This document shows positions 9,189-44,664 of a stretch of DNA of 64,000 nt, piece by piece (position 1 is the first letter of the stretch; every line of letters starts with the position of its first letter). The stretch is taken from the NCBI GenBank assembly GCA_965204745.1, contig OZ242010.1, forward strand, positions 3,808,001-3,872,000. Direction: 5' to 3'. The notes under the pieces were generated by a model. That model saw only the letters and a program-made list of their open reading frames with translations. It was not told the origin of the DNA and did no database searches. This DNA comes from Candidatus Latescibacterota bacterium. Lineage in GTDB: Bacteria; Latescibacterota; UBA2968. Both the position numbers and the translations under genes were made by a program.

Positions 9189-9389
9189 TCAACCTGATGA
9201 GCCAAAGTCGGCGGTGAAGATGAGGAAATCGTCGAATCCAATTTGACCATCGCCATTGAGATCGCACCGGGGGTCATATCGCTCCTGACCGAGGCGCGAG
9301 CCGAACTTGCTGGCAAAGGTCAAGAAGTCGGCGAAATTCACATCGCCATCGCCATCGCTGTCTGTGGCGGTCAGAGAACAGGCTTTCAT
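9189..9389 (-). CDS. Small EF-hand/dockerin-like protein or orphaned C-terminal domain
   Basis: DSDGDGDVNFADFLTF and DLNGDGQIGFDDFLIF paired Ca-binding loops; ATGA overlap with the upstream gene. Confidence 0.55.
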   Translation of the reverse strand: MKACSLTATDSDGDGDVNFADFLTFASKFGSRLGQERYDPRCDLNGDGQIGFDDFLIFTADFGSSG

Positions 9390-12300: not shown

Positions 12301-14962
12301 TCACGGTCAGCGTGTCCGCCGTCGCACTCACCTCCACACCCGTCGGGCTACCCAGCAGGGGAACGTCGGTCACTTCATCCGAGGGGTCACTGTCGGCTAC
12401 ATTGGCACGCGTGGCGATCACTCGAATCGCGTAGGTCGTCCCTGCGGTCAGCCCAGAAATATCGTAGGTCGTGGTGCTCCCGTTAGCGATTGTGGCTTGC
12501 CCGCGCGTGGCGGACGCCAGATCGGAGGTGGGATAAGTCTCTGACCCGGATTTCCACTGCACCTTATACCCGGTTGCATCGTCCACTGCGTTCCAAGTCA
12601 CGGTCAGCGTGTCCGCCGTCGCACTCACCTCCACACCCGTCGGGCTACCCAGCAGGGGAACGCCGGTCTGCTCTGCCGAGGGGTCACTGTCGGCTACATT
12701 GGCACGCGTGGCGATCACTCGAATCGCGTAGGTCGTCCCTGCGGTCAGCCCAGAAATATCGTAGGTCGTGGTGCTCCCGCCTGCGATTGTGGCTTGCCCG
12801 TGCGTGGTGGACTGCTCATCAGAGGTGGGATAAGTCTCTGACCCGGATTTCCACTGCACCTTATAGCCATCCGCGTCATCCACCGCGTCCCATGACACGC
12901 GCAACGTGTCCACCTGCGCGAGCACGCTAACGTTTTTAGGCGGCAACAGCCTTAGCGCGCCAGTCGCCTCGTTGGAGGCTTCACTGTCATCGTAATTCGC
13001 ACGGGTGGCGATCACCCGAACCGCGTAGGTCGTTCTGGCAGTCAGATCGGGAATCTTGTAATTCGTCGTACTGCCCACTGTGGCCTGTCCATGCGTCGCG
13101 GCATGCCCATCAGCAGTGGGGTAATTTTCTTCGCCAGACTTCCACTGCACCTTGTAACCCGTCGCACCGGTCACAGCGTCCCAATTCACCGATAGGGTAT
13201 CCATCAAGGCCATCACACGCACATTCATCGGCATGCCTAGCGTCTCGTCGTCGTCCACCGTCACCGTCACGCTGGCGATAGACAGACCAGTCGTATAGAC
13301 CCCTGAATCGGTGGTAACGCGGTGACTCACAAGCGCGGTGTCGTCCAGGCCATCGGCATCATGCCCTGCGGTTACGGTCACCGTCTGCGCCGTGTTCCAA
13401 TTCGAATTTGTGAAGGTCAGCGTCGAAGAGGACACGGTGACATCGGTGTTATTGCTCATGACGCCAATCACGACGTCGTTAGCGGGTTGGGCATCCAATA
13501 CGACCGTATAGGTGCCTCTGTTGGCGTTGGTGGTGCTGGGATCCTCCTTTAATGCCAGATTGCTTTCGCTGACGGTCACGCCCAGAGTCGGCGTCAGCGT
13601 TATTGTGCCCGTGGTCAGATCGCCACTTTTATCATGAGCCGATGCCCACACCTTCACTGCCAAGGTCTGGTCAGTGTCGAAGTCGCCGGTGAAGGCCAGA
13701 CGCAGAAACACCGCATCGGAATTGCCCCCAGATACAAAGGAGATGGACAAATTCGGGATGGTCGTCACCAATCCGAAGTGAGAAGCATTCAAATAAGAAC
13801 CATGGCCGAAGCGGGTGTGGTGCAGCTGCAGATCGATCCTCGCACCGTTCAGATTGGCTTCGGTTAACTGGGTGGGGGTAGTTGAACGGATCGTGACCCC
13901 TATCACGTTGATGTTGAATAACAGACTGGCGCGATCGCTATTGGCCATGTTGGCGTCCGAGTCCGTCGCATAGAGGGTGACGGAGAAGGTGCCCCCCACC
14001 CCATTGTCAGGCGTGCCGCAGATGGTACGCGCCGCCGTGCCGGGACAAGTCCCACTGCCATCGGCATCAAAGGTCAAACCCGCAGGCAAGCCGATGGCTT
14101 CATAGGTTAAGGCACCATCGCCGCCAGTCGCCGCAGGCATTTGCCACGCCAAAGTGTCCACGCCCGCAGTAATGGTCGTATCAGGCACTGAGTTATTACC
14201 GAAAGACGGAACCTCATCGCTCGACAATGTCGCCGTGTAGGTCGTGTTAAGGCTATTGTCCGTGACGATGACCGAAACGGTTATGGCTCCGCTACTCAGG
14301 GAACTGATGGTGTGTGAGCTACCACTGGCGACCGTGGTCGTGTCTCCACTATTGACGCTGACGCCGATGGTGCCCGAACTGGCCGTGGGTGTAACCTTCA
14401 GGCCGTTGGCGGTGGAGGGGATACTCCCGGTGTAAGTGAGCGTGGACGAGGCGAAGGTCGGCATCAACGTGACCGACGAGGAAGTGGGAATGGGTATCCA
14501 GTCTGCAAAGGCGGTAATTTCAACCTCCCCCTCCCAAACGTGCCACATGACCCCGCCATGGTCGATCTCGGTTTGTTCAAGCGTGATCGATGTGGGATGA
14601 GTGAGGAAACCGACTTGACGACATCCCGCCCTCCCGCCAGGGCTAACATCTCGTCGAGTATCCTTATCGGCACAAACATAGTGATAAAAATTCTGAGTCG
14701 AACCATCAGAAGCGGGGCCAGTAATCCTTATCGTTTGCGAAGTCGTTTGCGGCAAGAGGGTAGTGAAGCCAAACGAGAACGAGTAGGAGCTACTGCTATA
14801 TCTGGGTGAAGCCGGCGGATCAACTGAAATGGTAGCAACCAGTGCCAGGCCGGACAGAGTCGGTGCAGATTGCGCCTTAGCGGACGGAACAAAGCCGATC
14901 ATTGTAACCAGCCAACCGAAAAGCACGATAAAAACTGGATAGATTCGGGAGAACATCGTCAT
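9386..14962 (-). CDS. 1858-aa secreted surface protein: cadherin-like/Ig domains, about five FN3, GLUG repeats, two Calx-beta, duplicated dockerin-like C-terminus
   Basis: Signal peptide (SAKA-Q); W..V..A.GYKVQWKSG repeats; VGGIVG/VGGLIG repeats; GTATSGTDY...GTLTF repeats; LDVDGDG x2. Confidence 0.88.
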   Translation of the reverse strand: MTMFSRIYPVFIVLFGWLVTMIGFVPSAKAQSAPTLSGLALVATISVDPPASPRYSSSSYSFSFGFTTLLPQTTSQTIRITGPASDGSTQNFYHYVCADKDTRRDVSPGGRAGCRQVGFLTHPTSITLEQTEIDHGGVMWHVWEGEVEITAFADWIPIPTSSSVTLMPTFASSTLTYTGSIPSTANGLKVTPTASSGTIGVSVNSGDTTTVASGSSHTISSLSSGAITVSVIVTDNSLNTTYTATLSSDEVPSFGNNSVPDTTITAGVDTLAWQMPAATGGDGALTYEAIGLPAGLTFDADGSGTCPGTAARTICGTPDNGVGGTFSVTLYATDSDANMANSDRASLLFNINVIGVTIRSTTPTQLTEANLNGARIDLQLHHTRFGHGSYLNASHFGLVTTIPNLSISFVSGGNSDAVFLRLAFTGDFDTDQTLAVKVWASAHDKSGDLTTGTITLTPTLGVTVSESNLALKEDPSTTNANRGTYTVVLDAQPANDVVIGVMSNNTDVTVSSSTLTFTNSNWNTAQTVTVTAGHDADGLDDTALVSHRVTTDSGVYTTGLSIASVTVTVDDDETLGMPMNVRVMALMDTLSVNWDAVTGATGYKVQWKSGEENYPTADGHAATHGQATVGSTTNYKIPDLTARTTYAVRVIATRANYDDSEASNEATGALRLLPPKNVSVLAQVDTLRVSWDAVDDADGYKVQWKSGSETYPTSDEQSTTHGQATIAGGSTTTYDISGLTAGTTYAIRVIATRANVADSDPSAEQTGVPLLGSPTGVEVSATADTLTVTWNAVDDATGYKVQWKSGSETYPTSDLASATRGQATIANGSTTTYDISGLTAGTTYAIRVIATRANVADSDPSDEVTDVPLLGSPTGVEVSATADTLTVTWNAVDDAIGYKVQWKSGSETYPTSDLVSALRGQATIADGSTTTYDISGLTAETTYTIRVIATHTTTAANSTPSDAVMVTTAPAKPTNVRVTPGPLQLIVRWTEATGARGYKVQWKSGGQSYNTSDRQATVSGGNTTTYTIENLTIGTIYTVRVIATLAGGMDSDPSDEVMGTPQRIDYDSDGDGLIDITTLAQLNAIRWDLNGDGVVAASDTMTYNAAFPNRDTTSNVRMGCPSGTCTGYELFASLDFDENGDGDITQTGDPTYWNSGMGWNPIGTFSTQYQGDFKGNGHTINNLFINRGNVNSIGLFGDVDTGVQIETVGVTNADVTGALYTGILVGSNNGTIVACYTTGSVTGTDRVGGIVGYQGRNAAVINSSYSTADVSGSNHVGGVLGQKFGSVTNSYSIGRVSGSSNVGGLIGSSSQGSTTNSYWDTSTSDRATSGGGGTGKTTSELQSPTTYGATPSDTYYGWDANLDGQAGNDDPWTFGAMNQYPVLKYAGMDTTVQFQLQPAIVTLALTPSTISESGGMSTVTATLAHPLSAATTIKVRPVADAYTVGMDSTITIAAGSTANASDTVVITAVDNTQDAPNRDVTVTVVADNAQAVFLSTVITITDDDAPPRLSISSPSAVEGTALTFTVRLHAASGKEVTVAYADAGTGSATSGTDYTALTAGTLTFAAGTTSQTFAVSVSDDGDDEQNETVEVTLSNAVNATFDGGATSLTGTGTIIDDDGMPALSIGSPSVIEGATGATLTFQVYLRPAHTAQVTVGYADAGTGTATSGTDYTALTAGTLTFAMGDTIQTIPVSVTDDSDDEQNETVIVELSSATNATISTAQGTGTIIDDETSSANLDVDGDGRVRLFSDIILVIRYVLFFRNEALLRGNVIEPTATRTTAQEIEPYLDTLVNQNILDVDGDGDVRLFSDIILIIRYVLFFRNEALLRGNVIEQNATRTTAQAIEPYIRSLYPASHFQ

Positions 14963-32468: not shown

Positions 32469-32831
32469 CTACGCTTTCCCAAGTGCGATTGCCTCGCCCG
32501 GCTGGCGTTGGTCAATTCGTTCTCCAACAGACGGGATTTCTGCGAGTTCGCCTTGCAAACGCTGTTCTGCATGCCACAGATCGCACGCTTGTTGCATCCG
32601 CAACCAAAGTTCTGGCCCATTGCCGACGAGTTTCCCTATTCTGAGTGCCATTTCCGGGGTCAAGGGATGCGTGCAAGCCAAAACGCGATGCAATGCTCGA
32701 CGCGAGACCCCGAGGCGTTGCGCCGCTTCGGCAACCGATAAGGCGAGCGATGGCAAGACCTCTTCGCGCAAAATTTCGCCCGGATGAATCGGCACATGCG
32801 CCAATAGACGCTTGACGAGATATTCTGTCAT
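32469..32831 (-). CDS. higA: HigA-family antitoxin (HTH), no adjacent HigB
   Basis: PIHPGEILRE..L....SV.EAA..LGVSR..L, TPEMALRI.K..G.GPELWLRMQ. Confidence 0.88.
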   Translation of the reverse strand: MTEYLVKRLLAHVPIHPGEILREEVLPSLALSVAEAAQRLGVSRRALHRVLACTHPLTPEMALRIGKLVGNGPELWLRMQQACDLWHAEQRLQGELAEIPSVGERIDQRQPGEAIALGKA

Positions 32832-32833
32832 TG

Positions 32834-35800
32834 TCACCCTAAATGATGCCGCATATCCCACAATCTCTTTCGCAGTTGCTCAAAGGTGTAGAAGCTAAAG
32901 CCAATGCCGCGAACCCGCCTGAGTTCGTCAAGGCGTTGAAATGGTCCATTCCGCGTGCGGTAAGCCACGATGTTTTTCGCAACGTCAGGGCGAAGGTCGA
33001 GCCTGTCCGCAAGCACTTTTGCACTTTCACTATTGATAAAGCGCAAGGCAGATTGTCCAATTTGTTCGGTTTGGGTGGCTTGTTCGTCGCTAATTTTGGC
33101 TTCTCTGTGGGCAGTGACCACATTGCTACTCAAACGATGCCGCATATCCCACAATCTCTTTCGCAGTTGCTCAAAGGTGTAGAAGCCGATGCCGCGAACC
33201 CGCCTGAGTTCGTCAAGGCGTTGAAACTGCCCGTTCTGTGTGCGGTAGGCCACGATTTTTTTCGCAACGTCAGGGCTGCGGAGCTTTCCAAACTCGTCTG
33301 CAAGCGAATCCGCGCTTGCACTATTGATGAATTGCAAGGCAGATTGTTCAAATTGTTCGGTGGCGGATTGGGTGGCTTGTTCGTCGCTAATTTTGGCTTC
33401 TCTGTGGGCAGTGACCACATTGCTACTCGCTGGTAGTTCCGGGTTCTCAAAGCGAGGTTTGTCCGTTCTTTTTGGGGGTTGCGAATGTTCTTGGGGCAGA
33501 GCAGATGGTTTTTCAGGCTGTTCAGCGGTGGTCGGGATGTATTTCCCACCTTTGATAGAACCTTGCCGTTTCACCGCTGATCCCTTGTTGCTTGGCGGTG
33601 GCGAGGCTTGTTCGGACTTCGGGGCAGGGGCAGATGACAGACGGGTCATTGCTTCGTTGCCCTGCGGTCGCAATGACCAAAAAACTTCATCAACCGCTTT
33701 GAGCATCTCTTTTTTAATTTTCTCCATCTTGGCCTTAATTGGGGTAAAATCCCTTTCTTGAGAATTTTTGATATTGTCAATTTTTTCTGATAGGACATCC
33801 TGTTCATCAAGAGGAATCTTAGTAGAAAGTATCTCGAGATCGAGAGAATTGAGTTCTTTCATCAATAATTCAGCGGTGTGCTCGTCTTTGCGAATCGCAT
33901 CCTCGTACATTGCAAAAACGCTTTCAATCCCCCCTCTCAATTCAGTCTCAATCTCCTCTTTCGGCTGATTTTCCCTGCGGAAAAAGTCATGCAAAGACAC
34001 CCCATCCTCATCAAACGAGTATTCCTTGCCGCGGATGGCACTGTACGCGCTGATTCCCACAGGCTCAATGTCCACATCCTCAAGCGTCTCCTTTACCTCA
34101 TCCAAAATATCTTTTAAGTCGCTTGGACTTTTGAGATCTGCCTTGTTCAAAACCACGTAAAACGGCAATCCGTTCAGTTCCAGATCTTCTATGAAATCGA
34201 GATCGTCCTGTGGAATGGTACCGGTGGCGTCCAACCCAATCATCCAGATCAGGGCATCCCGGTCTTTTAGAACCTCGGCGGCGGTTTTCCTGTCCTCGCC
34301 GGTATTCCCTCCGGCCGGGTTGTAGCCCGGCGTGTCTATCAGACAGATATTTTCAAACAGACCTTCGTCTAAAGGGACTTCCACAGTAATATAAGGCATG
34401 TGGTCTTTGAGCTTAAAGGAAAATGACTCGACGAACCTGTGGGACAGTTGGCTGTAAAGGTCAGGCGCGATATCCACTGTGGCCCCGTCACGGGAGAATC
34501 CCTTGATAGAAACCTCGGGATTGGAGATCACAAAAGAGGGGATGGCTGTGGCGGGTTCGATGCCAACGGGCATTTTCACGTCTGGCTTTTTGATAAAGCT
34601 ATTGACGAACTCGGACTTGCCACTGCTGAAGCCCCCACCAATGGCAATGGATTTCTTCATGAAAGTGTGGGGGAAGGCCACGATCTCTTCCAAGCGTTTC
34701 TCGAGAGATTGCAATTTTTGCACGGCATCCGCCTCGTCGGCCAGCGAGGATTCCTCATTGGCAAAGTCCATAAACTCCTTGTCAAAGAGTTTCTTGAATT
34801 TCACAAATGCCTCATTTTCACTGGATTTGGGAGTAAGCAGGTCGGAGACCAATTTGTATTTCTGATCCAACTCATCGAAGTTGTGACGCGCTTTGGTCAA
34901 ATCGGTCTCTGTTTGATCGTGCTCCTCGCGCAACGCATTGTGCTCCTCATGCAACGCATTGAGGGCGTCCGTTTTCTCGGCATGTTTTTCGCGCTCTTCG
35001 GTCAGGGCCGTCGTTGTCTGGTTGTGTTCCTCCAACAATTTGGGCCAATCTGTCTGCATGTATTCCTCATGCAGTGAGTTGTATTTTTTTTGTTCATCGC
35101 GCAACTCGGCCTTTGTTTGCTCGTGTTCTGCACGCGCTTCGTCCAAGGCGGTCGTTGCACGCTCCAATTCCATTGTTGTCCGCTCGTGTTTTGCATGCAA
35201 CTGTTGAAGGTCATGCTGGGCCTTGTCTAAGGCGGCTGTTACGCGCTCGTGTTCTGCACGCGCTTCGTCCAAGGCCCCAGTTTTGCGATTCAAATCCGCC
35301 GTTGTCTGTTCGTGCGCTTTTTGCAACTGCTGAACGCGATGCCGGGCCTGCTCTAAATCGGTTGCTGTCCGATCATTCTTTTCCGTTAGGGCACCATGCG
35401 CTTTTTGCAACTGCTGAAAACGATGCCGTGAGTTGTCCAAGGCGGCCTTTGTCTGAGCGTGTTCTGCACGCGCTTCGCCCAAGGCCCCGGTTTTGCGATT
35501 CAAATCGACCGTTGTCTGCTCGTGCGCTTTTTGCAACTGCTGAACGCGATGCCGGGCCTGCTCTAAATCGGTTGCTGTCCGATCATTCTTTTCAGTTAGG
35601 GCACCATGCGCGGTTTGCAACTGCTGAAAACGATGCCGCGAGTTGTCCAAGGCGGTCTTTGTCTGAGCGTGTTCTGCATGCGCTTCGCCCAAGGCCCCGG
35701 TTTTGCGATTCAAATCGGCCGTTGTCTGTTCGTGCGCGGTTTGCAACTTTGCCAAATTTTTGGTCGCACGCTCGTATGCTACACGCAACTTCTGATAGAC

Positions 35801-35845
35801 TGGCCGATTTTGAATAAATTTTTCCCAAAGAGATTTCAGACTCAT
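32834..35845 (-). CDS. Dynamin-like GTPase with N-terminal 70-aa coiled-coil repeats and two C-terminal ComEA-type HhH domains
   Basis: GGFSSGKS (G1), ATAIP (G2), DTPG (G3), NKAD (G4); INSAS..L...A..IV.YR..NG.F..LDEL.RV.GIG..T.E.LR twice. Confidence 0.85.
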   Translation of the reverse strand: MSLKSLWEKFIQNRPVYQKLRVAYERATKNLAKLQTAHEQTTADLNRKTGALGEAHAEHAQTKTALDNSRHRFQQLQTAHGALTEKNDRTATDLEQARHRVQQLQKAHEQTTVDLNRKTGALGEARAEHAQTKAALDNSRHRFQQLQKAHGALTEKNDRTATDLEQARHRVQQLQKAHEQTTADLNRKTGALDEARAEHERVTAALDKAQHDLQQLHAKHERTTMELERATTALDEARAEHEQTKAELRDEQKKYNSLHEEYMQTDWPKLLEEHNQTTTALTEEREKHAEKTDALNALHEEHNALREEHDQTETDLTKARHNFDELDQKYKLVSDLLTPKSSENEAFVKFKKLFDKEFMDFANEESSLADEADAVQKLQSLEKRLEEIVAFPHTFMKKSIAIGGGFSSGKSEFVNSFIKKPDVKMPVGIEPATAIPSFVISNPEVSIKGFSRDGATVDIAPDLYSQLSHRFVESFSFKLKDHMPYITVEVPLDEGLFENICLIDTPGYNPAGGNTGEDRKTAAEVLKDRDALIWMIGLDATGTIPQDDLDFIEDLELNGLPFYVVLNKADLKSPSDLKDILDEVKETLEDVDIEPVGISAYSAIRGKEYSFDEDGVSLHDFFRRENQPKEEIETELRGGIESVFAMYEDAIRKDEHTAELLMKELNSLDLEILSTKIPLDEQDVLSEKIDNIKNSQERDFTPIKAKMEKIKKEMLKAVDEVFWSLRPQGNEAMTRLSSAPAPKSEQASPPPSNKGSAVKRQGSIKGGKYIPTTAEQPEKPSALPQEHSQPPKRTDKPRFENPELPASSNVVTAHREAKISDEQATQSATEQFEQSALQFINSASADSLADEFGKLRSPDVAKKIVAYRTQNGQFQRLDELRRVRGIGFYTFEQLRKRLWDMRHRLSSNVVTAHREAKISDEQATQTEQIGQSALRFINSESAKVLADRLDLRPDVAKNIVAYRTRNGPFQRLDELRRVRGIGFSFYTFEQLRKRLWDMRHHLG

Positions 35846-38070
35846 GGGTTCACCTCCACTTTTTTCAATTCATCCTTGAGGCGGCTGATTCGCTTCAATT
35901 CCATTTCCTTGTTTTCAATGGATTTCTCAAGCGCGTCAAGTTCCTTTTTCGTGCGCTCTAGAAGTTGCTCATCCAACCGAACTCTCTTCATTTCTGCGGT
36001 GAGACTTCTCGTGTACTCTTTTATTTTTGTATTAAATTCATTGTAAAGTGTGAAGCGAAGGTATTCGTCCGCCTCCTGAGCAAATTTTTCCGCCTTTTTG
36101 CCCTTCAACACGCCTTGGGGTCTTAAGGACTTTGGCAGTGAGGGGCCAAACGTATCGTCAGGAAGGGATATGTCGGCGACAGCATTCCTGATGACCCGCC
36201 TGATCATCGAGGCTTCCAAACTCTCATCATCAAAGTGTTCCTGCAAAATTTTGGCCATCTCCTTGATGAGTTCATTCCGCCACTCAGTCTTTTTATTTTC
36301 TGCTATGGTTTTGAACTCTCTACCGATATCACTGGCAAACAGCGACAGGTCATGAGAAACGGCATTGGTGCGAATGGTCTTACTGGTTTCACTATACTGT
36401 TCGTAACCACCTCCAAACCATCTGGCAATCCCTGCAAAAACCCCTCTCTTTTTACGCTCTTTGGTTTCAGTCACTTCGCCTATCGCACTCTCGATATTTT
36501 TGCTTAACGCCTGTTTTTGTCTGTCGAGTTCTCCCCGAAGTTCCCGATTCAGCGAGTTTGTGCGCTGTGTCACCGATTCCTCGTAATCCAATTTGATGTC
36601 CCATGAAGCATCATTGAGAGCCTTTGTCAATGTTGCGCGCTGTGCCTTGATTTTTCCAATATCCGTACGTTTGATTTCGGACTGCCGCTCGTCGGCAAAC
36701 GCGAGCAGGCCATCCTTCAAGGCGTGCAGAGACTGGCGTTTGGCGTGGATGTACTCCATCCGCCTTTGCGTGATGATGTCGTCCTTTTTCGCGCGCACCG
36801 TCGAGACGATGTTTTGGATGGTCAAGATGTTGGACAACTTGTTCAAATTGACGCCCGACAAGCGCGCGTCCGCATCGGAGAAATAGTCTGGATAATCGTA
36901 CAGCAGATTGCCCCAAGCGTTCTGCATCCCCTCGTCCCACTTCTCCCGTTGTCCAAAAAGTTGCTTCAGGCTTTCGCACATTCCCGACGAGTAAATGATC
37001 TTGCTCTGGCCTTCGAGCAACTGATCGTAGGTATCGCCCACTTCGGGATTGTTATCTTTCAAATCCGCGATAACCTTGCTCAATTGGTCTCCAAGCACCC
37101 TGGTGAGACTCTCCAACACGCGATCCAACTGCCCGCCGTTCTCATCCTTCAGATTGCCGAAAAGCTGGGTATCTGCTTGGGCCGCCACGACAAACAGTTC
37201 CCGGATGCCTTCCTTACTGGTGATTCGGTCCATCAATTCCAAATCCACAGTATTCAAAAACTGCCCCGACGGACTGAGAACCAACACCACATCGCATTGG
37301 TTCAAGTGTTCTCGCGTCCGCTCCTCGCGGGACTGCACCGGGTCGTTGATGCCCGGCGTATCCACGATTTCTATGTCCTTCAGATTTTCTTGGGGAAGCC
37401 GAATGTTGACGCTTTTGGTAAAGGGCATGTACCTGCCATCCGCGCCGACATACGCCTCTAATTGAGCCTGCAAATCAGAATCACTGCCGAACTCGAGAAG
37501 GCGATTCTCGGTCAAGGATTCCCCGGTAGCCTCCATTTTCTCGTATTGTTCATGCGCGGCAGAGAGTTCGACATTCTCCCGCATCTCCCGATTGGCCCTG
37601 CTTTTCGCCCGCTCCTCTGGGGATCGAGATCGGGTTTTTCTCTGCTGTTCTTGCGCTAGGGCTGTCCTGTACCGGTCGTCCCATTGCCTGTTGTACTCGT
37701 CGTAATTCGCCTTGATATTCTCAATGTCGGCTTGGGTAAAAAATTCCACTTCCGCGGACGGGGTTTTGCCATGCGAAAGCGTGGTCAAGGCCGCGGTCAT
37801 CGGCGTAGCGGCCTTGGGGAGAATGCTTTGCCCGTCAAAGATGAGGGCGTTCAGCAACGAGGATTTCCCGGATTTGACCCGGCCCAAGATGCCGATCTTC
37901 AGCAGACGACCTTCAGTGGCAATCGACTCCAAATCCGTTTGCAAGTTCTCGCTCGTGGGAACGCTGTGTTCCCGACAGATGCGTTGGGCCTCGTCCCCGA
38001 GAAAATCGTGGTAACGGCCCGTGACACCTTCCAACTTTTCCCTGAAAGCGACAATTCCATTCTGATTCAT
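35842..38070 (-). CDS. Dynamin-like GTPase (742 aa from the native ATG)
   Basis: GRVKSGKS, TPMT, DTPGINDP, AQAD; helical C-terminus with amphipathic GVFAGIARWFGG; ATGA overlap with the next gene. Confidence 0.9.
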   Translation of the reverse strand: MNQNGIVAFREKLEGVTGRYHDFLGDEAQRICREHSVPTSENLQTDLESIATEGRLLKIGILGRVKSGKSSLLNALIFDGQSILPKAATPMTAALTTLSHGKTPSAEVEFFTQADIENIKANYDEYNRQWDDRYRTALAQEQQRKTRSRSPEERAKSRANREMRENVELSAAHEQYEKMEATGESLTENRLLEFGSDSDLQAQLEAYVGADGRYMPFTKSVNIRLPQENLKDIEIVDTPGINDPVQSREERTREHLNQCDVVLVLSPSGQFLNTVDLELMDRITSKEGIRELFVVAAQADTQLFGNLKDENGGQLDRVLESLTRVLGDQLSKVIADLKDNNPEVGDTYDQLLEGQSKIIYSSGMCESLKQLFGQREKWDEGMQNAWGNLLYDYPDYFSDADARLSGVNLNKLSNILTIQNIVSTVRAKKDDIITQRRMEYIHAKRQSLHALKDGLLAFADERQSEIKRTDIGKIKAQRATLTKALNDASWDIKLDYEESVTQRTNSLNRELRGELDRQKQALSKNIESAIGEVTETKERKKRGVFAGIARWFGGGYEQYSETSKTIRTNAVSHDLSLFASDIGREFKTIAENKKTEWRNELIKEMAKILQEHFDDESLEASMIRRVIRNAVADISLPDDTFGPSLPKSLRPQGVLKGKKAEKFAQEADEYLRFTLYNEFNTKIKEYTRSLTAEMKRVRLDEQLLERTKKELDALEKSIENKEMELKRISRLKDELKKVEVNP

Positions 38071-38071
38071 G

Positions 38072-39151
38072 TAGGACTTACGCAAAAAAGAACAGGATCG
38101 AACCCCCATCCTCACTTTGGAGGTCTGTATGGCGAAACCAACGCGCTTGGATTACTGCCAGTATCTGCTTAGCAGTCCGCTCAATTATACCCTGACTCAT
38201 TTCGCAGATCACAGCGACCGGTTCACGCATGATATGCTCAACCGCTATCTGGGTGGGGATCGCGTCTCGCCGCGTGTGATCTGGAAAAACGTCAAACCCC
38301 ACCTCACGTCGACCGCAAAGGGCGTAATTCTCTTTGATGACACGGTCTTAGATAAGCGCTATGCCAAAAAGATGGCTCTCGTGCGTCGGCAATACAGTGG
38401 CAATGCGAAGGGGGTCATCTCGGGGATCGGTGTGGTGACGTGTGTGTATGTCAATCCGATTCAAGATCGGTTTTGGCTGATTGACTATCGCATTTACGAT
38501 CCGCAAGGGGATGGAAAAACCAAGTTAGACCACGTCAAAGAGATGTTGTCACTCTTGGTCTATCACAAAAAACTGCCTTTTGAGCGAGTGGTGATGGATA
38601 CTTGGTATGCCACCAAAGCGGTCATGCTTCACATTGAGCACTTGCAAAAGACCTATTACTGTCCTATCAAAAAGAATCGCCTCGTGGACGATTCGTCAGG
38701 TGAAAACCCCTATCAACGGGTCGATGCCTTAACTTGGACAAAACGCGAACAGGCCACAGGAAAACGCATGAAACTCAGAGGGTTCCCTAAAAACCACAAG
38801 GTGAACGTATTCCGGGTCGCGTCTGCGACGAGACGCACGGCGTATATCGTAACCAACGACTTGACTCAAACCGACCCGTCAGTGGCACAAGCGGTGTGCC
38901 ACTTGCGTTGGAAGATTGAGCAAGTTCACCGGGAAGCAAAACAGGTAACGGGGCTTGAAAAGTGTCAATGCCGATTGGCACGCATTGTGCGAAACCACAT
39001 CGCGTGTGCCTTTCTCGTTTGGGGACGACTGACCCAAGTCGCCTATCAGACTGGACAAACCATCTATCAAGTCAAACATGGCTTATGGGAGGATTATTTG
39101 AGACAACAACTCAAAACACCGGCGATACCAATGACCCTGGCGTAAGTCCTA
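38072..39151 (+). mobile_element. IS701-like insertion sequence, copy 1
   Basis: TAGGACTTACGC terminal inverted repeats; 5-bp TCATG target duplication (38067-71 and 39152-56). Confidence 0.9.
38117..39145 (+). CDS. IS701-family DDE transposase
   Basis: FDDTVLDK, QYSG, MDTWY, RWKIEQVHREAKQ..G...CQ.R motifs. Confidence 0.88.
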   Translation: MEVCMAKPTRLDYCQYLLSSPLNYTLTHFADHSDRFTHDMLNRYLGGDRVSPRVIWKNVKPHLTSTAKGVILFDDTVLDKRYAKKMALVRRQYSGNAKGVISGIGVVTCVYVNPIQDRFWLIDYRIYDPQGDGKTKLDHVKEMLSLLVYHKKLPFERVVMDTWYATKAVMLHIEHLQKTYYCPIKKNRLVDDSSGENPYQRVDALTWTKREQATGKRMKLRGFPKNHKVNVFRVASATRRTAYIVTNDLTQTDPSVAQAVCHLRWKIEQVHREAKQVTGLEKCQCRLARIVRNHIACAFLVWGRLTQVAYQTGQTIYQVKHGLWEDYLRQQLKTPAIPMTLA

Positions 39152-39259
39152 TCATGTTCGTTCTCCTTGTAAGGCGGTAAGAGGTAAGGCGGGAGACGGG
39201 AGAGGTGAGACAACCCCGCCCAACGCCTAAGTGGTCAGCGGAAGTTTAGCCACAAAAAC

Positions 39260-40444
39260 GGCGTTGTTGCATAAATGTTGTCGTGGCGAAGTTCGTCCCT
39301 TTCCCGCGAGATTTAAGCCCCTCTTTCTATGGGATAGGACACGGGTTTCGCGATCCTCATCATGCGATTGAGCACCGCACATCCCAACCGCGCTTCCGTT
39401 TCTTGGTTCTTCTGACTTCGTGCGCGCAACTGCCGTCCAATGAGTTGCTTGTAGCGGCATAGTTGGGTTTCAACGACCGAGCGACGATGATAGCCACTGG
39501 TGCGTTTCCACTTTCGGCGGCCTTGACGCCGGATGGCTCGGATGATTTCATCGCGGGCGAGGGGAGGTGCCTTCCTGTTTCCGTGTTGTTCAATTTTGGC
39601 ATCATGGCGCGGGGGAAGAAGAGGTCGGATGGGGGCTCCTTGTTTGGGGGCGGCGCATGTGTTGAAGACCTTGCGTTTGTCATAGCCGCCATCGGCACCC
39701 ATCGTATGGACAGGGGCCAGGACTTGATCGAGCAAGGGGTTGACCTGCCAAGCGTCATCAACGCTTGCCGAAGTCAGGGTCTGTGCGACAATCTCCCCGG
39801 TGGCCTCATCGACGCCGATGTGCAATTTGCGCCAAGTCCGGCGCTTGTAAAAGCCGTGTTGACGCACCTTCCATTCCCCTTCGCCATACACTTTCAGGCC
39901 GGTGGAATCCACCACTAAATGGATCGGCGCATGACGGGATTGGACAGGTAAATCCACGTTCAAATCGCCCTGTCGCCGGCAGAGGGTCGTGTGATCGGGC
40001 ACGCGCAAAGCCACCCCCATCAACGCCAGGATGGACGTGAGAAACCCCTCGGTTTGACGCAGGGGCAAGGCAGAGACCAAGCGCAACATCAATGCCGTTT
40101 GAATAGCCAAATCTGAAAAGGTGTTTTGCCGCCCCCGTTGCGTTGGCCCTTGATGGTACCACCCCCGAAGGGCTTGCGGCGTGATCCAAAACGTCAGACT
40201 GCCCCGCTGCTTGAGACCGGCCTCGTAGGCCGCCCAGTTCCGAACCCGATAGACAGGCGCACAGCGCGGGCGACGCGGGCGACGCGGGGACTTGACAGCG
40301 GTCTTGGAAGCGGTTATCTTGGGCATGACAGGTTCCTGGTGAGAAAGGGTGAGTGGTTTCGATGATCTATATGCCCAATCTACGAAGGAGCCTGTCTTTT
40401 TGCAATCCCAACTTGCAGGTAATTGCTATTTATGCAACAAAGCC
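39260..40444 (-). mobile_element. IS5-family (IS903 group) insertion sequence
   Basis: GGCGTTGTTGCATAAAT / ATTTATGCAACAAAGCC inverted ends; 9-bp CACAAAAAC target duplication. Confidence 0.92.
39313..40326 (-). CDS. IS5/IS903 transposase
   Basis: NW..Y..GL.QRGSLTFW, DSTGLKVYGEGEW, WRKLH, ADGGYD, YHRRS..ET. Confidence 0.93.
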   Translation of the reverse strand: MPKITASKTAVKSPRRPRRPRCAPVYRVRNWAAYEAGLKQRGSLTFWITPQALRGWYHQGPTQRGRQNTFSDLAIQTALMLRLVSALPLRQTEGFLTSILALMGVALRVPDHTTLCRRQGDLNVDLPVQSRHAPIHLVVDSTGLKVYGEGEWKVRQHGFYKRRTWRKLHIGVDEATGEIVAQTLTSASVDDAWQVNPLLDQVLAPVHTMGADGGYDKRKVFNTCAAPKQGAPIRPLLPPRHDAKIEQHGNRKAPPLARDEIIRAIRRQGRRKWKRTSGYHRRSVVETQLCRYKQLIGRQLRARSQKNQETEARLGCAVLNRMMRIAKPVSYPIERGA

Positions 40445-40881
40445 CACAAAAACACAAAAAACACAAGCGGGGTACAACTGGCGATAGGCCGTTCAAAGAC
40501 ACAATCGGAGACTATCTCCCCTTCCCGAATCGGGGTGAAAGTCTTGTAGTTAATTTGTTGGTCATTGTTGATTGTTTGGTGTATGTTTTGTGTCGTATTT
40601 GTTCTTTGAAAAGTGAAGCGGGATAGGCCGTTGCTGATAAAGACATGTCTGCGACAGCGACAACCAAGCGGCAGACCTAAAATCTCCTATCAGCATAAAA
40701 TCCACAGGAAGAATAGTAAATAATAGACTATTCACTTGCGCGGCTAGCTTGACCGAGCAAGTAAAAAACGGACATGGAGGTGCTGTAAGACGGACAAGAG
40801 GTTGTATGTGCTTGGACGCTGGCCTGATGAAGCGTCAATTTCAGTTGGTCAACAATGATCAACAAGAAAGGAGCGGAGAGC

Positions 40882-42597
40882 CTATTGTTCAAAAAGCACC
40901 GGCGTTGCCAGCAAGCGGATGTTCTCTCGAATGCTGGTCAGATCGGCAATGGTTTGTTCAATGTCCTGAAGCGCGTCCTTCTTGGCCCGCTCGGCTTCGG
41001 CGATTTCGCTTTGTTTGGCTTTGATCTGCGAATCCAAGGCCGCCGCGTTCTCATCGATGAGGGCGTTCACTTGCTCCTCGAAATTTTTGGGCAGTTCGCT
41101 CCGCAATTTGCTTTTGATGGACGGGATAACGCTTCCAATCAGTTGGTTGCGAATCTGATCCTCCTGCTTCCGCTTTTGAAAGTAGGCAATAATGTCGGGC
41201 AGGAAGATAATGACGAGTTCCAACAGTGGCATCACAAAACTGGTGGTAATGGCGAGCGTGGTGGCGACAACACGGTACAAATTCCGCCCACCTTTGACTG
41301 CACTGCCGATCCCTTTGATAATCGCGCTCCCCGTGGAAAGAATCTGTGGGGCGTGGTACACTGCTTTTTCCAGCCAATTTTCATCTCTCGTATAAGAGGA
41401 CAGAATGTGGTCAATGCCTTTGACGCTGTTAGACAAGTCTTCGCCGATCTGTCTGTTCAACTGCTCCATTTCGGTTTTCACATGGCTCCCGAGCGAGGTG
41501 CGGAGGATTTCCGCCATCTGTTGCTGAAAAGCATCTTCGCCGCCGGACAGGGCGATGTTGGTCAACTCCTCTACGGCATTGTTCAAGTCCGCGCCCACGC
41601 GCTCCACAATGGTATTGACACGGGTCGTGGAATACCGCGAGCGGATGTCCTGAATCATAGCGTTTTTCTCGCGCTCCAAATCCCGGATGGCTGTGGCGAG
41701 TTTGTCAATGGCCGCTTGGTTCTCGCCCTCGTCCTTTTTCAAGGAACTGATCCAAGTGTTCAAGCTGCCGTCAATATCGAAGAAACTCGCCTCCAAGCTG
41801 GGGCGATAAAGCCGGGTGAAAAGTTTTTCCGGATCGATGGCATCGAGCGTTTTTCCAAGACTCGCCCCGCCATCCATGTCCACGGGCACGACCACATCGG
41901 CAAAGTCGAAATCGTCTTGGAGCCGATCCTTGACGTTCTGCGCGATCTCTCGAACCTCGGATTCCGAGCGCAAATTCGCCTTGCTCAAAAACACGGAAAA
42001 CGGCTTGTCGAACTCGTCAAACTCGGACAACTGCCGATGGGTCGATTGCGTGACCGTGCCCTCTTCCACGCTGATCAAGACCGCGTAATGGCTCCCTCGG
42101 TCAAGGTACGTCAAAATGGCTTTCTGGTGCAAATCCAGCGGCGAATCAAACCCCGGCATATCCACGAGCACGAGGGGCGCGATCCCCTTGAGTTGCTCGC
42201 TGTTGAGAAAGACCTCGACATATTGATATTGCGCCGCCTTTTCCTTAATCGCGCCGATCTCCTCAATGGCGTAGCGATCCGCCTCGCCATTTTCCATGAT
42301 GGCCTCGACGCGCTCCCTGTCGGAATAACGCAACTCGGTTGCCAGCGCGGTTTCCGGGGTGATGTTGACGGGCAGGAGTTCAGACCCCAAAAACGAGTTG
42401 ATCAACGTGCTCTTGCCCGCGCTGAATGCCCCGATCACCGGCACGACCAACTCGGCCTCGGCGATCTCCCGTTTCAACGCCTCTGCGGACTGGATGTTTT
42501 TCCCAAGTTCCTCAAACACCCCCAAAGCACTCGCCCTAGTCAATTCCGCCTTCACCCCATCCAAATAATCGCAAAACGTCCTCTGCGTCTGAAGCAT
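40882..42597 (-). CDS. Dynamin-like GTPase (571 aa) with hydrophobic membrane paddle
   Basis: GAFSAGKS, TPET, DMPG, SKAN; VVATTLAITTSFVMPLLELVIIFLP segment; AGGAG RBS. Confidence 0.9.
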   Translation of the reverse strand: MLQTQRTFCDYLDGVKAELTRASALGVFEELGKNIQSAEALKREIAEAELVVPVIGAFSAGKSTLINSFLGSELLPVNITPETALATELRYSDRERVEAIMENGEADRYAIEEIGAIKEKAAQYQYVEVFLNSEQLKGIAPLVLVDMPGFDSPLDLHQKAILTYLDRGSHYAVLISVEEGTVTQSTHRQLSEFDEFDKPFSVFLSKANLRSESEVREIAQNVKDRLQDDFDFADVVVPVDMDGGASLGKTLDAIDPEKLFTRLYRPSLEASFFDIDGSLNTWISSLKKDEGENQAAIDKLATAIRDLEREKNAMIQDIRSRYSTTRVNTIVERVGADLNNAVEELTNIALSGGEDAFQQQMAEILRTSLGSHVKTEMEQLNRQIGEDLSNSVKGIDHILSSYTRDENWLEKAVYHAPQILSTGSAIIKGIGSAVKGGRNLYRVVATTLAITTSFVMPLLELVIIFLPDIIAYFQKRKQEDQIRNQLIGSVIPSIKSKLRSELPKNFEEQVNALIDENAAALDSQIKAKQSEIAEAERAKKDALQDIEQTIADLTSIRENIRLLATPVLFEQ

Positions 42598-43056
42598 GGT
42601 TGTCTCCTCTGTCTGAATCGCGGATTGTCGCGGATTTATGGATTGCGCGGATTAAACCCGTCCATTCGCGTTTTGTCATAATAACAATAAAAGGCCATTG
42701 CGTCAAGCCTCTTAGGTCGGTGGTGGATTAAAGGGTGGGACTTCCAGCCCAGGTGCTATGGTACCGTTTCAATTCCATAACACGACCATCGCTACATGCT
42801 TTGGGAGCGTGGGGGGAGTGTAACGACAGAGATACGATACGATTACTGTGTTGCATTTATCCCTGGAAAATGGCAGGTAGGCAAGTGTGCAACTCACTGT
42901 TGTAGCCTACTGATGAATCTTCTCGCCTATGCACTCCACCCCACGCAAAACTGCAATTCGCTCTTTACTATTTATTTACGGGGAATATATCCCCTATGTC
43001 ACAACATGCAAGCCGAAAAAAGTTTGTAGGGCTAAAGCCCTTCTAAAAATTTGTCC

Positions 43057-43090: not shown

Positions 43091-43430
43091 GTGAACAGAC
43101 GACGCAAAACGTCAGGCGGCAAGCCGCTCGAAAGGGTTCGCGCCCGCGTGTTCACCTTCGGTCTTTTTCACGGCCGGCTCGCGACCGGCATTCGGTACCC
43201 GGCTCGGAATGCGATTTCTCCAAAGACCACCACGCACACGTCAGGCAAGCGGAAAATTCACAGAACCGCGAGTGGGAGTGACAGGCTACAACGCACACAA
43301 GAGGAGGTCAATATGCCACCTATCAGTACCACGCGGTCGGGCATCATCATGACCTCACCCCCGACCGTCTGACATTTGAGGTTGTGCAATATACAAACGG
43401 CCACGATCACAAGATCGCGGCCGTTTTTTT
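43091..43430 (+). ncRNA. Candidate structured ncRNA / small-ORF transcript (~330 nt)
   Basis: Nested stems GTGAACA/TGTTCAC, GGTCTTT/AAAGACC, GCATTC/GAATGC, GTCAGGC/GTCTGAC, GAGGTCA/TGACCTC; own promoter and terminator. Confidence 0.5.
43395..43430 (+). terminator. Intrinsic terminator
   Basis: AAACGGCCACGATC-acaa-GATCGCGGCCGTTTTTTT. Confidence 0.8.
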
Positions 43431-43431
43431 A

Positions 43432-44052
43432 GACCTACCCCCTGCTGGCCCCGGTTACTCGCTCCGCTCCATTATAGGCTACGCCTGTGCCTGCGAGGAA
43501 GAGGGAATGGCGATGGGGATTGCGAGGGGATTGGGACCTACCCCCTGGCCCCCTTCCTACGAGGAAGGGGGAATGGCGAGAGGTCTTCCGAGGGATTGTG
43601 TGTAAGGGTTTTTTGATTTTCATGGCGTGATCCATTCGCTCAAAGCCATCAGAATAGCTAGGGATGCAAACCGTCAAAAAGCCATGCGCTCCCCCTTTCC
43701 TCGCAGGAAAGGGGGCCGGGGGGATAGGTTTTGCGATGTGGGACCTACCCCCTGGCCCCCTTCCTACGAGGAAGGGGGAATGGCGAGAGGTTTTGCGAGG
43801 GATTGTACGAGGTGGGTTTGGATTTTCATGGCGTGATCCATTCGCCCAAAGCCATCAGAATAGCCAGGGATGCAAACCTTCAAAAAGCCATGCGCTCCCC
43901 CTTTCCTCGCAGGAAAGGGGGCCGGGGGGATAGGTCGATTTTTCATGGCGTGATCCATTCGCCCAAAGCCATCAAAACAGACAGGGATACAAACCTTCAA
44001 AAAGCCATGCGCTCCCCCTTTCCTCGCAGGAAAGGGGGCCGGGGGGATAGGT
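43432..44052. repeat. REP/BIME-like cluster with three ~115-bp units
   Basis: catggcgtgatccattcgc...aaagccatgcgctccccctttcctcgcaggaaagggggccggggggatagg three times. Confidence 0.9.
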
Positions 44053-44094
44053 CGATGGCGGTGGAACGGATGGGCACGCACGGGCAGATTTCGT

Positions 44095-44664
44095 CTATTC
44101 GTCTATTGAATCCAACAGGCGGCGCGTTTCTCGGGGCGAGCGCAGGCGGAAGACCGCGAGGTGGCGGTGTTGCGGCAGGTCGAACGCGGCGAGCAGGCTC
44201 GGTTTGCGCGACCAGTGGGTTTGGAACGCCCACAAAAACAGGGAGTCCTTTGTGAAAAAGTGCCACCACAGCTTTTCTCGGTTGCCGTTCCACAGCACGG
44301 TGCGCTTGGCGGCGCGGGAAATGGTGCGACAGAAGAGACGATAGAAGACGACCGGGAAGGCATAGTCGAGATAGATGATAGCGGTTGCGTGCGGCCATAC
44401 GAGGTCGCGGACGACGCTGTAATTGCCGTCTGCGATCCATCGGTCTGCGGCGATGGCTTTGGCGACGTTCTGCCTGAGAATGTGATTGGGCGTCGGGGCC
44501 CAGTTGGGGCCGTGCCGATACGCGTCGAACTCGATGTGGGGCACGTTCAGCCGAGACGCGAGGTGCCGGGCGAGTGTCGTCTTTCCCGCGCCCGACGTTC
44601 CGATGATGACCACGCGGCGCAAGGCGTCTTTATGAGGGGTATCGGTCACGGGGATGCCTCTCAC
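44095..44664 (-). CDS. Adenylate-kinase-like / FlaR-type P-loop protein
   Basis: GTSGAGKTT, WIADGNY, LWNGNRE. Confidence 0.85.
   Translation of the reverse strand: MRGIPVTDTPHKDALRRVVIIGTSGAGKTTLARHLASRLNVPHIEFDAYRHGPNWAPTPNHILRQNVAKAIAADRWIADGNYSVVRDLVWPHATAIIYLDYAFPVVFYRLFCRTISRAAKRTVLWNGNREKLWWHFFTKDSLFLWAFQTHWSRKPSLLAAFDLPQHRHLAVFRLRSPRETRRLLDSIDE

Follow-up and report, generated by a model that had tools for sequence, protein, structure and literature searches.

A dynamin-like GTPase with tandem ComEA-type HhH units, encoded by the third gene of a three-dynamin operon in a Latescibacterota bacterium

A 64,000-nucleotide stretch of the genome of a Candidatus Latescibacterota bacterium (contig OZ242010.1 of assembly GCA_965204745.1; hereafter the window) was found to encode a 1003-amino acid (aa) dynamin-like GTPase that carries two tandem ComEA-type helix-hairpin-helix (HhH) units at its C-terminus. 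Sequence comparison places this protein, P0001, as gene 3 of a conserved, mostly translationally coupled operon of three dynamin-like proteins (DLPs) that occurs across many bacterial phyla. We propose with moderate confidence that gene 3 is the DNA-tethering adaptor subunit of a three-dynamin membrane machine, which is probably an accessory defense or stress system. Neither a dynamin-HhH fusion nor a three-DLP operon was found described in the open-access literature (subscription papers and supplementary tables were outside our reach), and both the architecture and the operon are apparently undescribed. An earlier reading of the same DNA from its letters (the first-pass annotation) had likewise known of no characterized dynamin with such an architecture.

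Gene 3 was identified as a single open frame of 1003 codons without internal stops. Its product is ordered as an N-terminal helical rod, a GTPase, a three-helix neck, a disordered linker, and two (HhH)2 units, which are located in the window as follows:

32834 to 35845, minus strand: gene 3 (P0001, 1003 aa), a dynamin-like GTPase of the short form that has a helical rod at its N-terminus and tandem HhH units at its C-terminus
34841 to 35845, minus strand: N-terminal all-helical region, residues 1-335 (Tandem Repeats Finder and single-sequence AlphaFold2 model)
33671 to 34660, minus strand: GTPase (about residues 396-625) and three-helix neck (about residues 631-725), the core common to the family (G motifs, model, and fold search)
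33398 to 33661, minus strand: disordered Pro/Ser/Lys-rich linker, residues 729-816 (88 residues with a predicted local distance difference test score, pLDDT, below 50)
32837 to 33430, minus strand: two tandem ComEA-type (HhH)2 units (HHH_3, TIGR00426, duplication, alignment to ComEA 8dfk, and pLDDT)

The GTPase core was examined in an alignment of residues 381-1003 of P0001 with 29 relatives. Across these 30 sequences, the P-loop residues G404, G409, K410, and S411, the switch-I residue T433, and the G3 residues D504 and P506 were found to be invariant, while T505, G507, and the G4 residue K568 were conserved at 90% or more (P0001 reads N567-K568-A569-D570 at this site). Pfam Dynamin_N scored P0001 at 25.9 bits over residues 400-568, slightly under the 27-bit cut-off, and scored the orthologous third genes of G020, Thiothrix, and Helicobacter at 34.5, 50.9, and 35.0 bits, respectively. 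The AlphaFold2 model of residues 381-1003 (mean pLDDT 79.8) comprised a GTPase at model residues 1-245 followed by three long helices at 251-345. When this model was compared with the PDB by Foldseek, the top matches were confined to the dynamin superfamily, including IniA, BDLP, mitofusin-1, Cj-DLP2, and EHD (E 2e-11 to ~1e-8, probability 1.00). As modeled, the P0001 core has a dynamin-type GTPase fold with an adjoining helical neck; the intact G1-G4 dynamin GTPase claimed by the first-pass annotation is borne out by both the conserved G motifs and these dynamin-only fold matches. No trunk or membrane-binding paddle was present in the model, where the GTPase is followed by the three helices and then by the disordered linker. 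A hydrophobic segment was not seen on reading the P0001 sequence either; gene 1, by contrast, has one.

The HhH region coincides with a duplication at the 3′ end of the gene (32841-33131 versus 33132-33428, at a spacing of 285-297 bp, with segments 80-98% identical). The encoded units scored above the curated cut-offs of Pfam HHH_3 (85.7 bits in 2 stretches; cut-off 27) and of NCBIfam TIGR00426, the ComEA HhH repeat region (60.2 bits; cut-off 53.1), while the full-length ComEA model TIGR01259 was not passed (75.3 bits; cut-off 152.35). Their best PDB sequence match was ComEA 8dfk (E 1.3e-6), and they were modeled by AlphaFold2 with a pLDDT mostly above 90. The second hairpin keeps G-I-G in both units, and Lys/Arg outnumber Asp/Glu in the unit core by a hand count of the sequence. 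The pair of duplicated ComEA-like HhH units that had been read at 32845-33430 is borne out by these results, and the comparison with HHH_3 and ComEA, in which both cut-offs were exceeded, does not refute it. Upstream of the units, the linker had been described as Pro-rich, which agrees with the Pro/Ser/Lys-rich composition and low pLDDT of residues 729-816. Within this otherwise disordered linker, the motif KRQGxIKGGKYI (P0001 residues ~762-785, window ~33490-33560) was modeled as a small beta-hairpin at model residues 382-391. The motif was found to be common to the HhH-type relatives P0008 (in three copies), P0013, P0054, and P0070, and missing from the ankyrin-type relatives P0024 and P0044.

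The fusion of these domains was traced through homologues and public contigs. A word-indexed search with residues 381-1003 of P0001 found 249 proteins, of which 120 were listed and their Pfam columns counted by hand. HHH_3 (PF12836) and Dynamin_N (PF00350) occurred together in 20 of the 120 listed homologue clusters at 42-99% identity, the co-occurrence for which the first-pass annotation had suggested a check. Ankyrin repeats took the place of the HhH units in about 60 of the listed clusters, an FGE-sulfatase domain was present in three, and the close relative P0018 ends in a Lys-rich tail and also has very regular coiled-coil repeats. By these comparisons, the C-terminus of gene 3 is exchangeable, in the form of HhH units, a Lys-rich tail, ankyrin repeats, or an FGE-sulfatase domain. 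Further variation was noted in P0013, P0054, and P0070, which have an IF2_N-like domain ahead of the HhH units, and in P0021, which starts with a transmembrane helix and contains a Cys-rich insert. An exhaustive HMMER search reached 3517 library proteins at E ≤ 1e-3, of which 339 were at E ≤ 1e-30; most of these relatives are ~500 aa in length and stop at the end of the core. An ESM Atlas search yielded nothing beyond generic 'dynamin family protein' clusters. Orthologues from two sister genomes (G016 and G020) carry 3 and 2 HHH_3 stretches, respectively. Contigs from four public runs of four studies cover gene 3; the best holder is possibly the window's own sample, and only other studies were counted. 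Among these, a contig of run X2 (record 21) is continuous over 33399-35148, passing through the GTPase, neck, linker, and first 31 nt of the HhH region, and the remaining public contigs over gene 3 break only at internal repeats. The dynamin-HhH fusion is genuine and not an assembly chimera, a possibility raised in the first-pass annotation and answered by the other-study contig that runs from the GTPase through the linker into the HhH region and by the same architecture in the two sister genomes.

The N-terminal rod was examined for its repeats and predicted structure. Single-sequence AlphaFold2 modeling of residues 1-400 (pLDDT 81.8) gave helices at 3-152, 158-264, and 267-337 that make up nearly all of the region. 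Tandem Repeats Finder located a 210-bp tandem unit (2.4 copies, 94% matches) at 35248-35748, where 210-bp repeats had been predicted at ~35250-35750, as well as a weaker 126-bp periodicity adjoining it at 35119-35356. The related claim of ~330 aa of 70-aa coiled-coil repeats is only partly upheld: a helical region of ~335 aa is present, but near-exact 70-aa repeats cover only ~170 aa of it and the remainder is degenerate. The coiled coil had also been taken for a stalk; however, it is not the dynamin stalk because it is placed N-terminal to the GTPase. The first ~20 residues of P0001 recur in the homologues P0008, P0018, and P0043. Matches of the N-terminal region to SMC, Rad50, JetC, and LmuB were all far below cut-offs and were read as coiled-coil composition rather than homology.

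Two further dynamin genes lie upstream of gene 3 on the same strand:

40882 to 42597, minus strand: gene 1 (P0256, 571 aa), a dynamin-like GTPase of the Cj-DLP2/LeoA type with a hydrophobic hairpin at about residues 440-475
35842 to 38070, minus strand: gene 2 (P0002, 742 aa from the ATG at 38070), a BDLP/Cj-DLP1-like dynamin-like GTPase

Gene 1 scored 69.9 bits with Dynamin_N and matched Cj-DLP2 among PDB sequences (5owv_C, E 1.1e-6). Its PADLOC matches to LeoA (E 3.9e-12, 44 bits) and LeoBC (E 1e-9, 36 bits) were both partial, and the NCBIfam models CrfC and DynA gave a weak 30.5 bits and 32 bits (the latter versus a cut-off of 1600), respectively. The hydrophobic hairpin of gene 1, as read from the sequence, is conserved in 14 orthologues. 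Gene 2 ends in a 4-bp overlap with the start of gene 3; it scored 81 bits with Dynamin_N and matched Cj-DLP1 (5owv_A, E 7.6e-10) and Nostoc BDLP (2j68, E 2.8e-8). No PADLOC match of P0002 was detected at E ≤ 1; its Pseudomonas orthologue matched LeoBC at E 2.3e-13. On these similarities, genes 1 and 2 are classified as a paired bacterial DLP operon of the Cj-DLP1/2 type, with one member of each subtype and the predicted membrane-binding segment in gene 1. When gene 1 and the core of gene 3 (residues 381-730) were submitted to complex prediction with alignments made for the purpose, scores of 0.00 and 0.00 were returned, which count neither for nor against contact. Antisense to gene 1, a 608-aa open reading frame (ORF) at 40855-42681 (plus strand) had no Pfam match; in all likelihood it is a shadow of the dynamin frame on the opposite strand.

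The conservation of this gene order was next considered. A genome scan with the single P0001 protein found no relative; an alignment-based pattern scan of one genome per species did find relatives (251 core relatives, of which 80 were listed), and 19 loci were hand-picked for taxonomic spread. In 17 of these 19 loci, three genes were found in the same order on one strand, encoding proteins of ~560-615 aa and ~733-787 aa and a gene 3 homologue, with stops and starts that mostly overlap. The taxa with the operon include Pseudomonas, Burkholderia, Neisseria, Leclercia, Luteibacter, Marinobacter, Thiothrix, Sulfurovum, Helicobacter, Spirochaetaceae, Treponema, and Latescibacterota. All three genes pass the Dynamin_N cut-off in the Thiothrix and Helicobacter loci (L029 and L075). 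The three genes are likewise contiguous in the sister genomes G016 (79% identity to P0001; 589, 733, and 1188 aa) and G020 (52% identity; 570, 745, and 789 aa). Orthologues of gene 1 are 32-86% identical to P0256, and those of gene 2, of which 15 align, are 25-69% identical to P0002. The exceptions to the three-gene order were (i) a Campylobacter locus with just two dynamin genes, of 537 aa each; and (ii) a Paludibacteraceae locus (L085, 3831-6401), where gene 2 is directly preceded by two Sel1-repeat/double-zinc-ribbon genes. The Sel1 genes of the latter recall the HcpA-like Sel1 gene of the C. jejuni dlp operon, as that operon is described in the available portion of PMC6104087. The Leclercia genes 2 and 3 had no blastn match in complete Escherichia coli genomes.

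Distribution of the module was found to be patchy. Full-length orthologues of P0001 were detected in 2 of 20 same-genus genomes, and matches at E ≤ 1e-20 in 11 of the 168 phylum genomes, a count that includes the own genome and corresponds to 3 of 49 genera. Among these 168 genomes, the HhH form was limited to the own genome, G016, and G020. The Latescibacterota genomes G137, G140, and G145 (also locus pairs L016/L020, L018/L021, and L019/L022) have two ankyrin-type gene 3 copies each, at separate sites, an arrangement that suggests paralogous three-dynamin modules within one cell. Sequence of the organism occurs in public runs labeled as sponge metagenome; among the runs listed as holding the stretch, none was an RNA run.

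The flanks of eight hand-picked loci, a small sample, were scanned with Pfam. Known defense genes adjoin the operon in three of the eight: (i) in Pseudomonas (L038), GmrSD lies on one side and an ADP-ribosylglycohydrolase and a MmeI/Eco57I-type methylase on the other; (ii) in Marinobacter (L058), a WYL-WCX regulator (L058:3063-4262) lies directly upstream on the same strand and the BREX genes BrxL and PglZ downstream; and (iii) in Luteibacter (L064), a WYL-WCX regulator (L064:3395-4462) is again directly upstream on the same strand, with GmrSD and a large FtsK-domain protein downstream. The P. lactis flank (L041) has an ADP-ribosylglycohydrolase; the Neisseria, Leclercia, and Thiothrix flanks have metabolic, regulatory, or IS605 genes; and the L031 flank gave no Pfam match. 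ORFs of 355-399 aa were found upstream of the operon in G016, G020, L017, and L075 that are unrelated to each other or to the L064 WYL protein. A conserved upstream regulator was considered and rejected, as the upstream ORFs are unrelated between loci and WYL-WCX was found in L058 and L064 only.

In the window itself, the operon is interrupted by mobile elements, including two insertion sequence (IS) elements and a repeat resembling a miniature inverted-repeat transposable element (MITE):

38072 to 39152, plus strand: IS element A, with a DDE transposase ORF at 38117-39145 (plus strand), at the start codon of gene 2
39260 to 40444, minus strand: IS element B, with a DDE transposase ORF at 39313-40326 (minus strand; DDE_Tnp_1_5, 131.6 bits)
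40532 to 40877, strand not applicable: MITE-like repeat (element C), 345 bp, 4 bp from the gene 1 stop, with two other copies at 98% identity

IS element A, which has 12 other copies in the genome (94-100% identity, five at 100%), separates the ATG of gene 2 from its AGGAG ribosome-binding site, which is now on the far side of the element. An allele without IS element A exists in the communities of runs X1 and X5, where contigs pass from 38072 straight into the sequence beyond the element. IS element B has 17-nt terminal inverted repeats, a 9-bp target duplication on both sides, and ~19 other full-length or near-full-length copies in the genome, most at 94-97% identity. The MITE-like repeat has inverted arms at 40555-40571 and 40849-40865. 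The insertions look recent because all three ORFs are intact. A promoter scan found 8 sites compared with 7.0 ± 3.1 in shuffled sequence, which is no excess; one site matching 10 of 12 positions lies ~80 nt upstream of gene 1. Also upstream of gene 1, at ~43430-44100 and in a 44-bp piece at 42610-42654, is a family of short interspersed or tandem repeats of ~110-300 bp with more than 150 matches over the 5.48-Mb genome; the ORFs called there look repeat-derived.

Bacterial dynamins are known as membrane-reshaping pairs, and how they are recruited to their sites is largely obscure. In the mechanism we propose, (i) genes 1 and 2 would act as a membrane-active tethering or remodeling pair like Cj-DLP1/2; (ii) gene 3 would be a soluble third subunit, a stripped-down dynamin with a rod of variable length and with neither trunk nor paddle, and would dock on or regulate the gene 1/2 pair by way of either the GTPase and neck or the conserved N-terminal end; (iii) the C-terminus of gene 3 would serve as an exchangeable targeting module, here two ComEA-type (HhH)2 units on a flexible linker of ~90 aa, which would bind the dsDNA backbone without sequence preference; and (iv) DNA-bound gene 3 would recruit the GTP-driven DLP pair to sites of contact between DNA and the inner membrane, or activate it there. 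As an accessory cassette, the module would most likely serve in defense or stress handling at the membrane, where phage or other DNA comes in. Membrane remodeling would come from the upstream genes 1 and 2 because gene 3 is without a paddle or visible hydrophobic segment. The first-pass annotation had suggested that P0001 could couple DNA sensing to membrane remodeling; the HhH units do match ComEA and HHH_3, but the membrane half of that suggestion would have to pass from P0001 to the upstream DLPs, which that reading had not noticed. A role in defense or stress is the leading idea because the module behaves as an accessory cassette and a two-gene dynamin operon is known to defend against jumbo phages in a P-loop-dependent manner. 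We advance as a hypothesis that the module senses phage DNA, counting indirectly in its favor the patchy distribution, the exchangeable C-terminus, and the defense neighbors in three of the eight flanks. Somewhat improbable, and put forward tentatively, is the broader proposal that the three-gene module constitutes an undescribed, phylum-spanning family of dynamin-based immunity or surveillance, in which a third, paddle-less dynamin steers a membrane-active DLP pair and its C-terminal domain sets what is sensed, this being foreign dsDNA at the inner membrane for the HhH form. If gene 3 does act as a DNA-tethering adaptor, a third dynamin with a swappable targeting domain would provide a concrete recruitment mechanism and link a membrane machine directly to DNA. 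The presence of the operon in tractable genera (Pseudomonas, Marinobacter, Neisseria, and Leclercia) makes this testable without culturing the Latescibacterota host.

Several observations weigh against a DNA-tethering adaptor with a role in defense. No known defense gene was found in five of the eight scanned flanks, and the neighbors in the window are mixed, comprising a HigA-like helix-turn-helix (HTH) protein, BNR_4, Uma2, a nucleoside deoxyribosyltransferase, a PD-(D/E)XK protein, and transposases. The Eleos LeoA and LeoBC models were not matched over their full length by any of the three genes: P0256 gave 44 and 36 bits in partial matches, P0002 gave none, and P0001 gave coiled-coil matches only. 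The ankyrin-type paralogues in related Latescibacterota genomes, contigs of which occur in sponge-metagenome runs, could point to a lifestyle function rather than immunity. In this genome, 2.8 kb of mobile DNA splits gene 1 from genes 2 and 3 and gene 2 is parted from its ribosome-binding site; the three-dynamin system may be impaired here because of these IS insertions. Finally, neither HhH unit shows the Gly-hydrophobic-Gly pattern in its first hairpin, where unit 1 has two inserted residues and unit 2 is devoid of Gly, and the DNA affinity of the units may be weak or lost because this usual Gly pattern is missing. The canonical first hairpin is kept in the relatives P0013 and P0070.

The degenerate first hairpins bear on an alternative that we regard as unlikely, in which the HhH units are no longer DNA-binding and serve as an adaptor for protein-protein contact or self-association, like the ankyrin repeats of the paralogues. 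The ankyrin repeats of a sister clade are at the same position, and the two units are recent duplicates that could evolve freely. However, the second G-I-G hairpin and a ComEA-like core are kept with the TIGR00426 cut-off passed and a pLDDT above 90, the unit core has an excess of Lys/Arg over Asp/Glu, the Lys-rich tail of the relative P0018 is of a nucleic-acid-binding kind, and the HhH architecture is kept from 42% to 99% identity, all of which argue for retention of DNA binding.

Binding of DNA need not be directed at incoming DNA, as a ComEA-type HhH domain that binds non-specifically would also bind the cell's own nucleoid. The three-DLP machine could on this basis be a housekeeping link that tethers the chromosome to the membrane during segregation or division, like E. 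coli CrfC or the divisome proteins DynA/DynB of Streptomyces. For CrfC, a dynamin-like protein with a role at DNA replication (according to the portion of PMC6104087 at hand), there is a precedent and the weak 30.5-bit match of gene 1. Nonetheless, we find such a role quite unlikely in view of the very patchy distribution (HhH form in 3 of the 168 phylum genomes, any family member in 11), the flanks that vary between loci, the tolerance of the operon to IS disruption in this genome, and the swapping of the C-terminal domain for ankyrin or FGE-sulfatase in close relatives.

Very unlikely, in our estimation, is a role in membrane-vesicle formation or host interaction of the kind proposed for LeoABC, with gene 3 loading DNA or other cargo. 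Deletion of leoA or leoB approximately halved the vesicle-associated reporter and OmpA, as stated in the available text of PMC4159319, and this role would agree with the partial LeoA/LeoBC similarity of gene 1 and with the sponge-metagenome labels of the runs in which the organism occurs. It is countered by the weakness of that similarity in HMM scores, by the occurrence of the operon in free-living and host-associated taxa alike, and by the finding of no signal peptide in the gene 3 sequence and no secretion-related gene among the window neighbors. Scarcely credible is an origin of the fusion in chimeric assembly or in the decay of a pseudogene: internal repeats and nearby IS elements are prone to assembly error, yet the 1003-codon frame is intact, the architecture recurs in two sister genomes and, from other assemblies, in 20 of the 120 listed clusters, and the path from the GTPase through the linker to the beginning of the HhH units is covered by independent contigs.

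Among the other features of the window, a small HTH ORF lies next to the 3′ end of gene 3:

32469 to 32831, minus strand: XRE/HigA-like small HTH ORF (HTH_31, 24.3 bits, under the cut-off of 27)

The likely ATG of this ORF is 2 nt past the gene 3 stop; a HigB-like partner is not in sight, and conservation of the ORF was not seen in the orthologous loci inspected. The ORF list of the window also includes a 1858-aa ORF at 9386-14962 (minus strand).

Comparison of the three-dynamin operon with known systems places its parts as follows, the nearest of these systems being the paired BDLPs (Cj-DLP1/2 and Nostoc BDLP1/2) and the Eleos/LeoABC operon. Bacillus subtilis DynA is a dynamin-like protein tied to membrane protection and phage resistance (PMC12998192 and bioRxiv 10.1101/2022.05.11.491447, in the portions available); unlike gene 3, it is a single two-headed fusion of two DLPs without a DNA-binding domain. 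By the available text of the same preprint (bioRxiv 10.1101/2022.05.11.491447), a two-gene dynamin operon protects B. subtilis from jumbo phages and both P-loops are needed. For the two-gene system, a 60% share next to defense systems is reported. Eleos, or LeoA-LeoBC (leoABC of enterotoxigenic E. coli; Bacillus vietnamensis), likewise consists of consecutive dynamin-like GTPase genes in an operon; gene 1 gives partial LeoA/LeoBC matches, and defense genes sometimes adjoin the operon described here. In contrast to Eleos, there are three genes rather than two, gene 3 is without an Eleos counterpart, and the HMM matches are partial and low-scoring.

The best structural matches to the gene 3 core, which is composed of a GTPase and a small helical bundle, were mini-mitofusin (the MFN1 GTPase with HD1; 5gom/5yew) and IniA (6j72), at TM-scores of 0.33-0.44 when normalized to the target. 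These are truncated or complete membrane-active dynamins, whereas gene 3 is naturally short and without a membrane-binding element. Each C-terminal unit of gene 3 can be aligned with the part of ComEA (8dfk and 8dss) that binds DNA, its (HhH)2 domain, and a ComEA-like ORF of ~157 aa from the genome itself is 43% identical to the HhH unit of gene 3. In contrast to ComEA, the domain in gene 3 is duplicated, fused to a GTPase, and degenerate in its first hairpin, with no N-terminal membrane anchor or signal seen. For Cj-DLP1/Cj-DLP2 (5owv/5oxf), genes 2 and 1 match by sequence at E 7.6e-10 and 1.1e-6, respectively; both genes also match Nostoc BDLP1 (2j68/2j69), and the GTPase-plus-neck fold of the Cj-DLPs and BDLP is found in the modeled gene 3 core as well. 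Most bacterial DLP pairs sit side by side in one operon, and the third member of the Cj dlp operon is an HcpA-like gene and not a GTPase, as described in the accessible part of PMC6104087. Relative to the Cj-DLP pair, the operon of the window has a third DLP gene that is devoid of trunk and paddle and that adds a helical rod N-terminal to the GTPase as well as an add-on domain.

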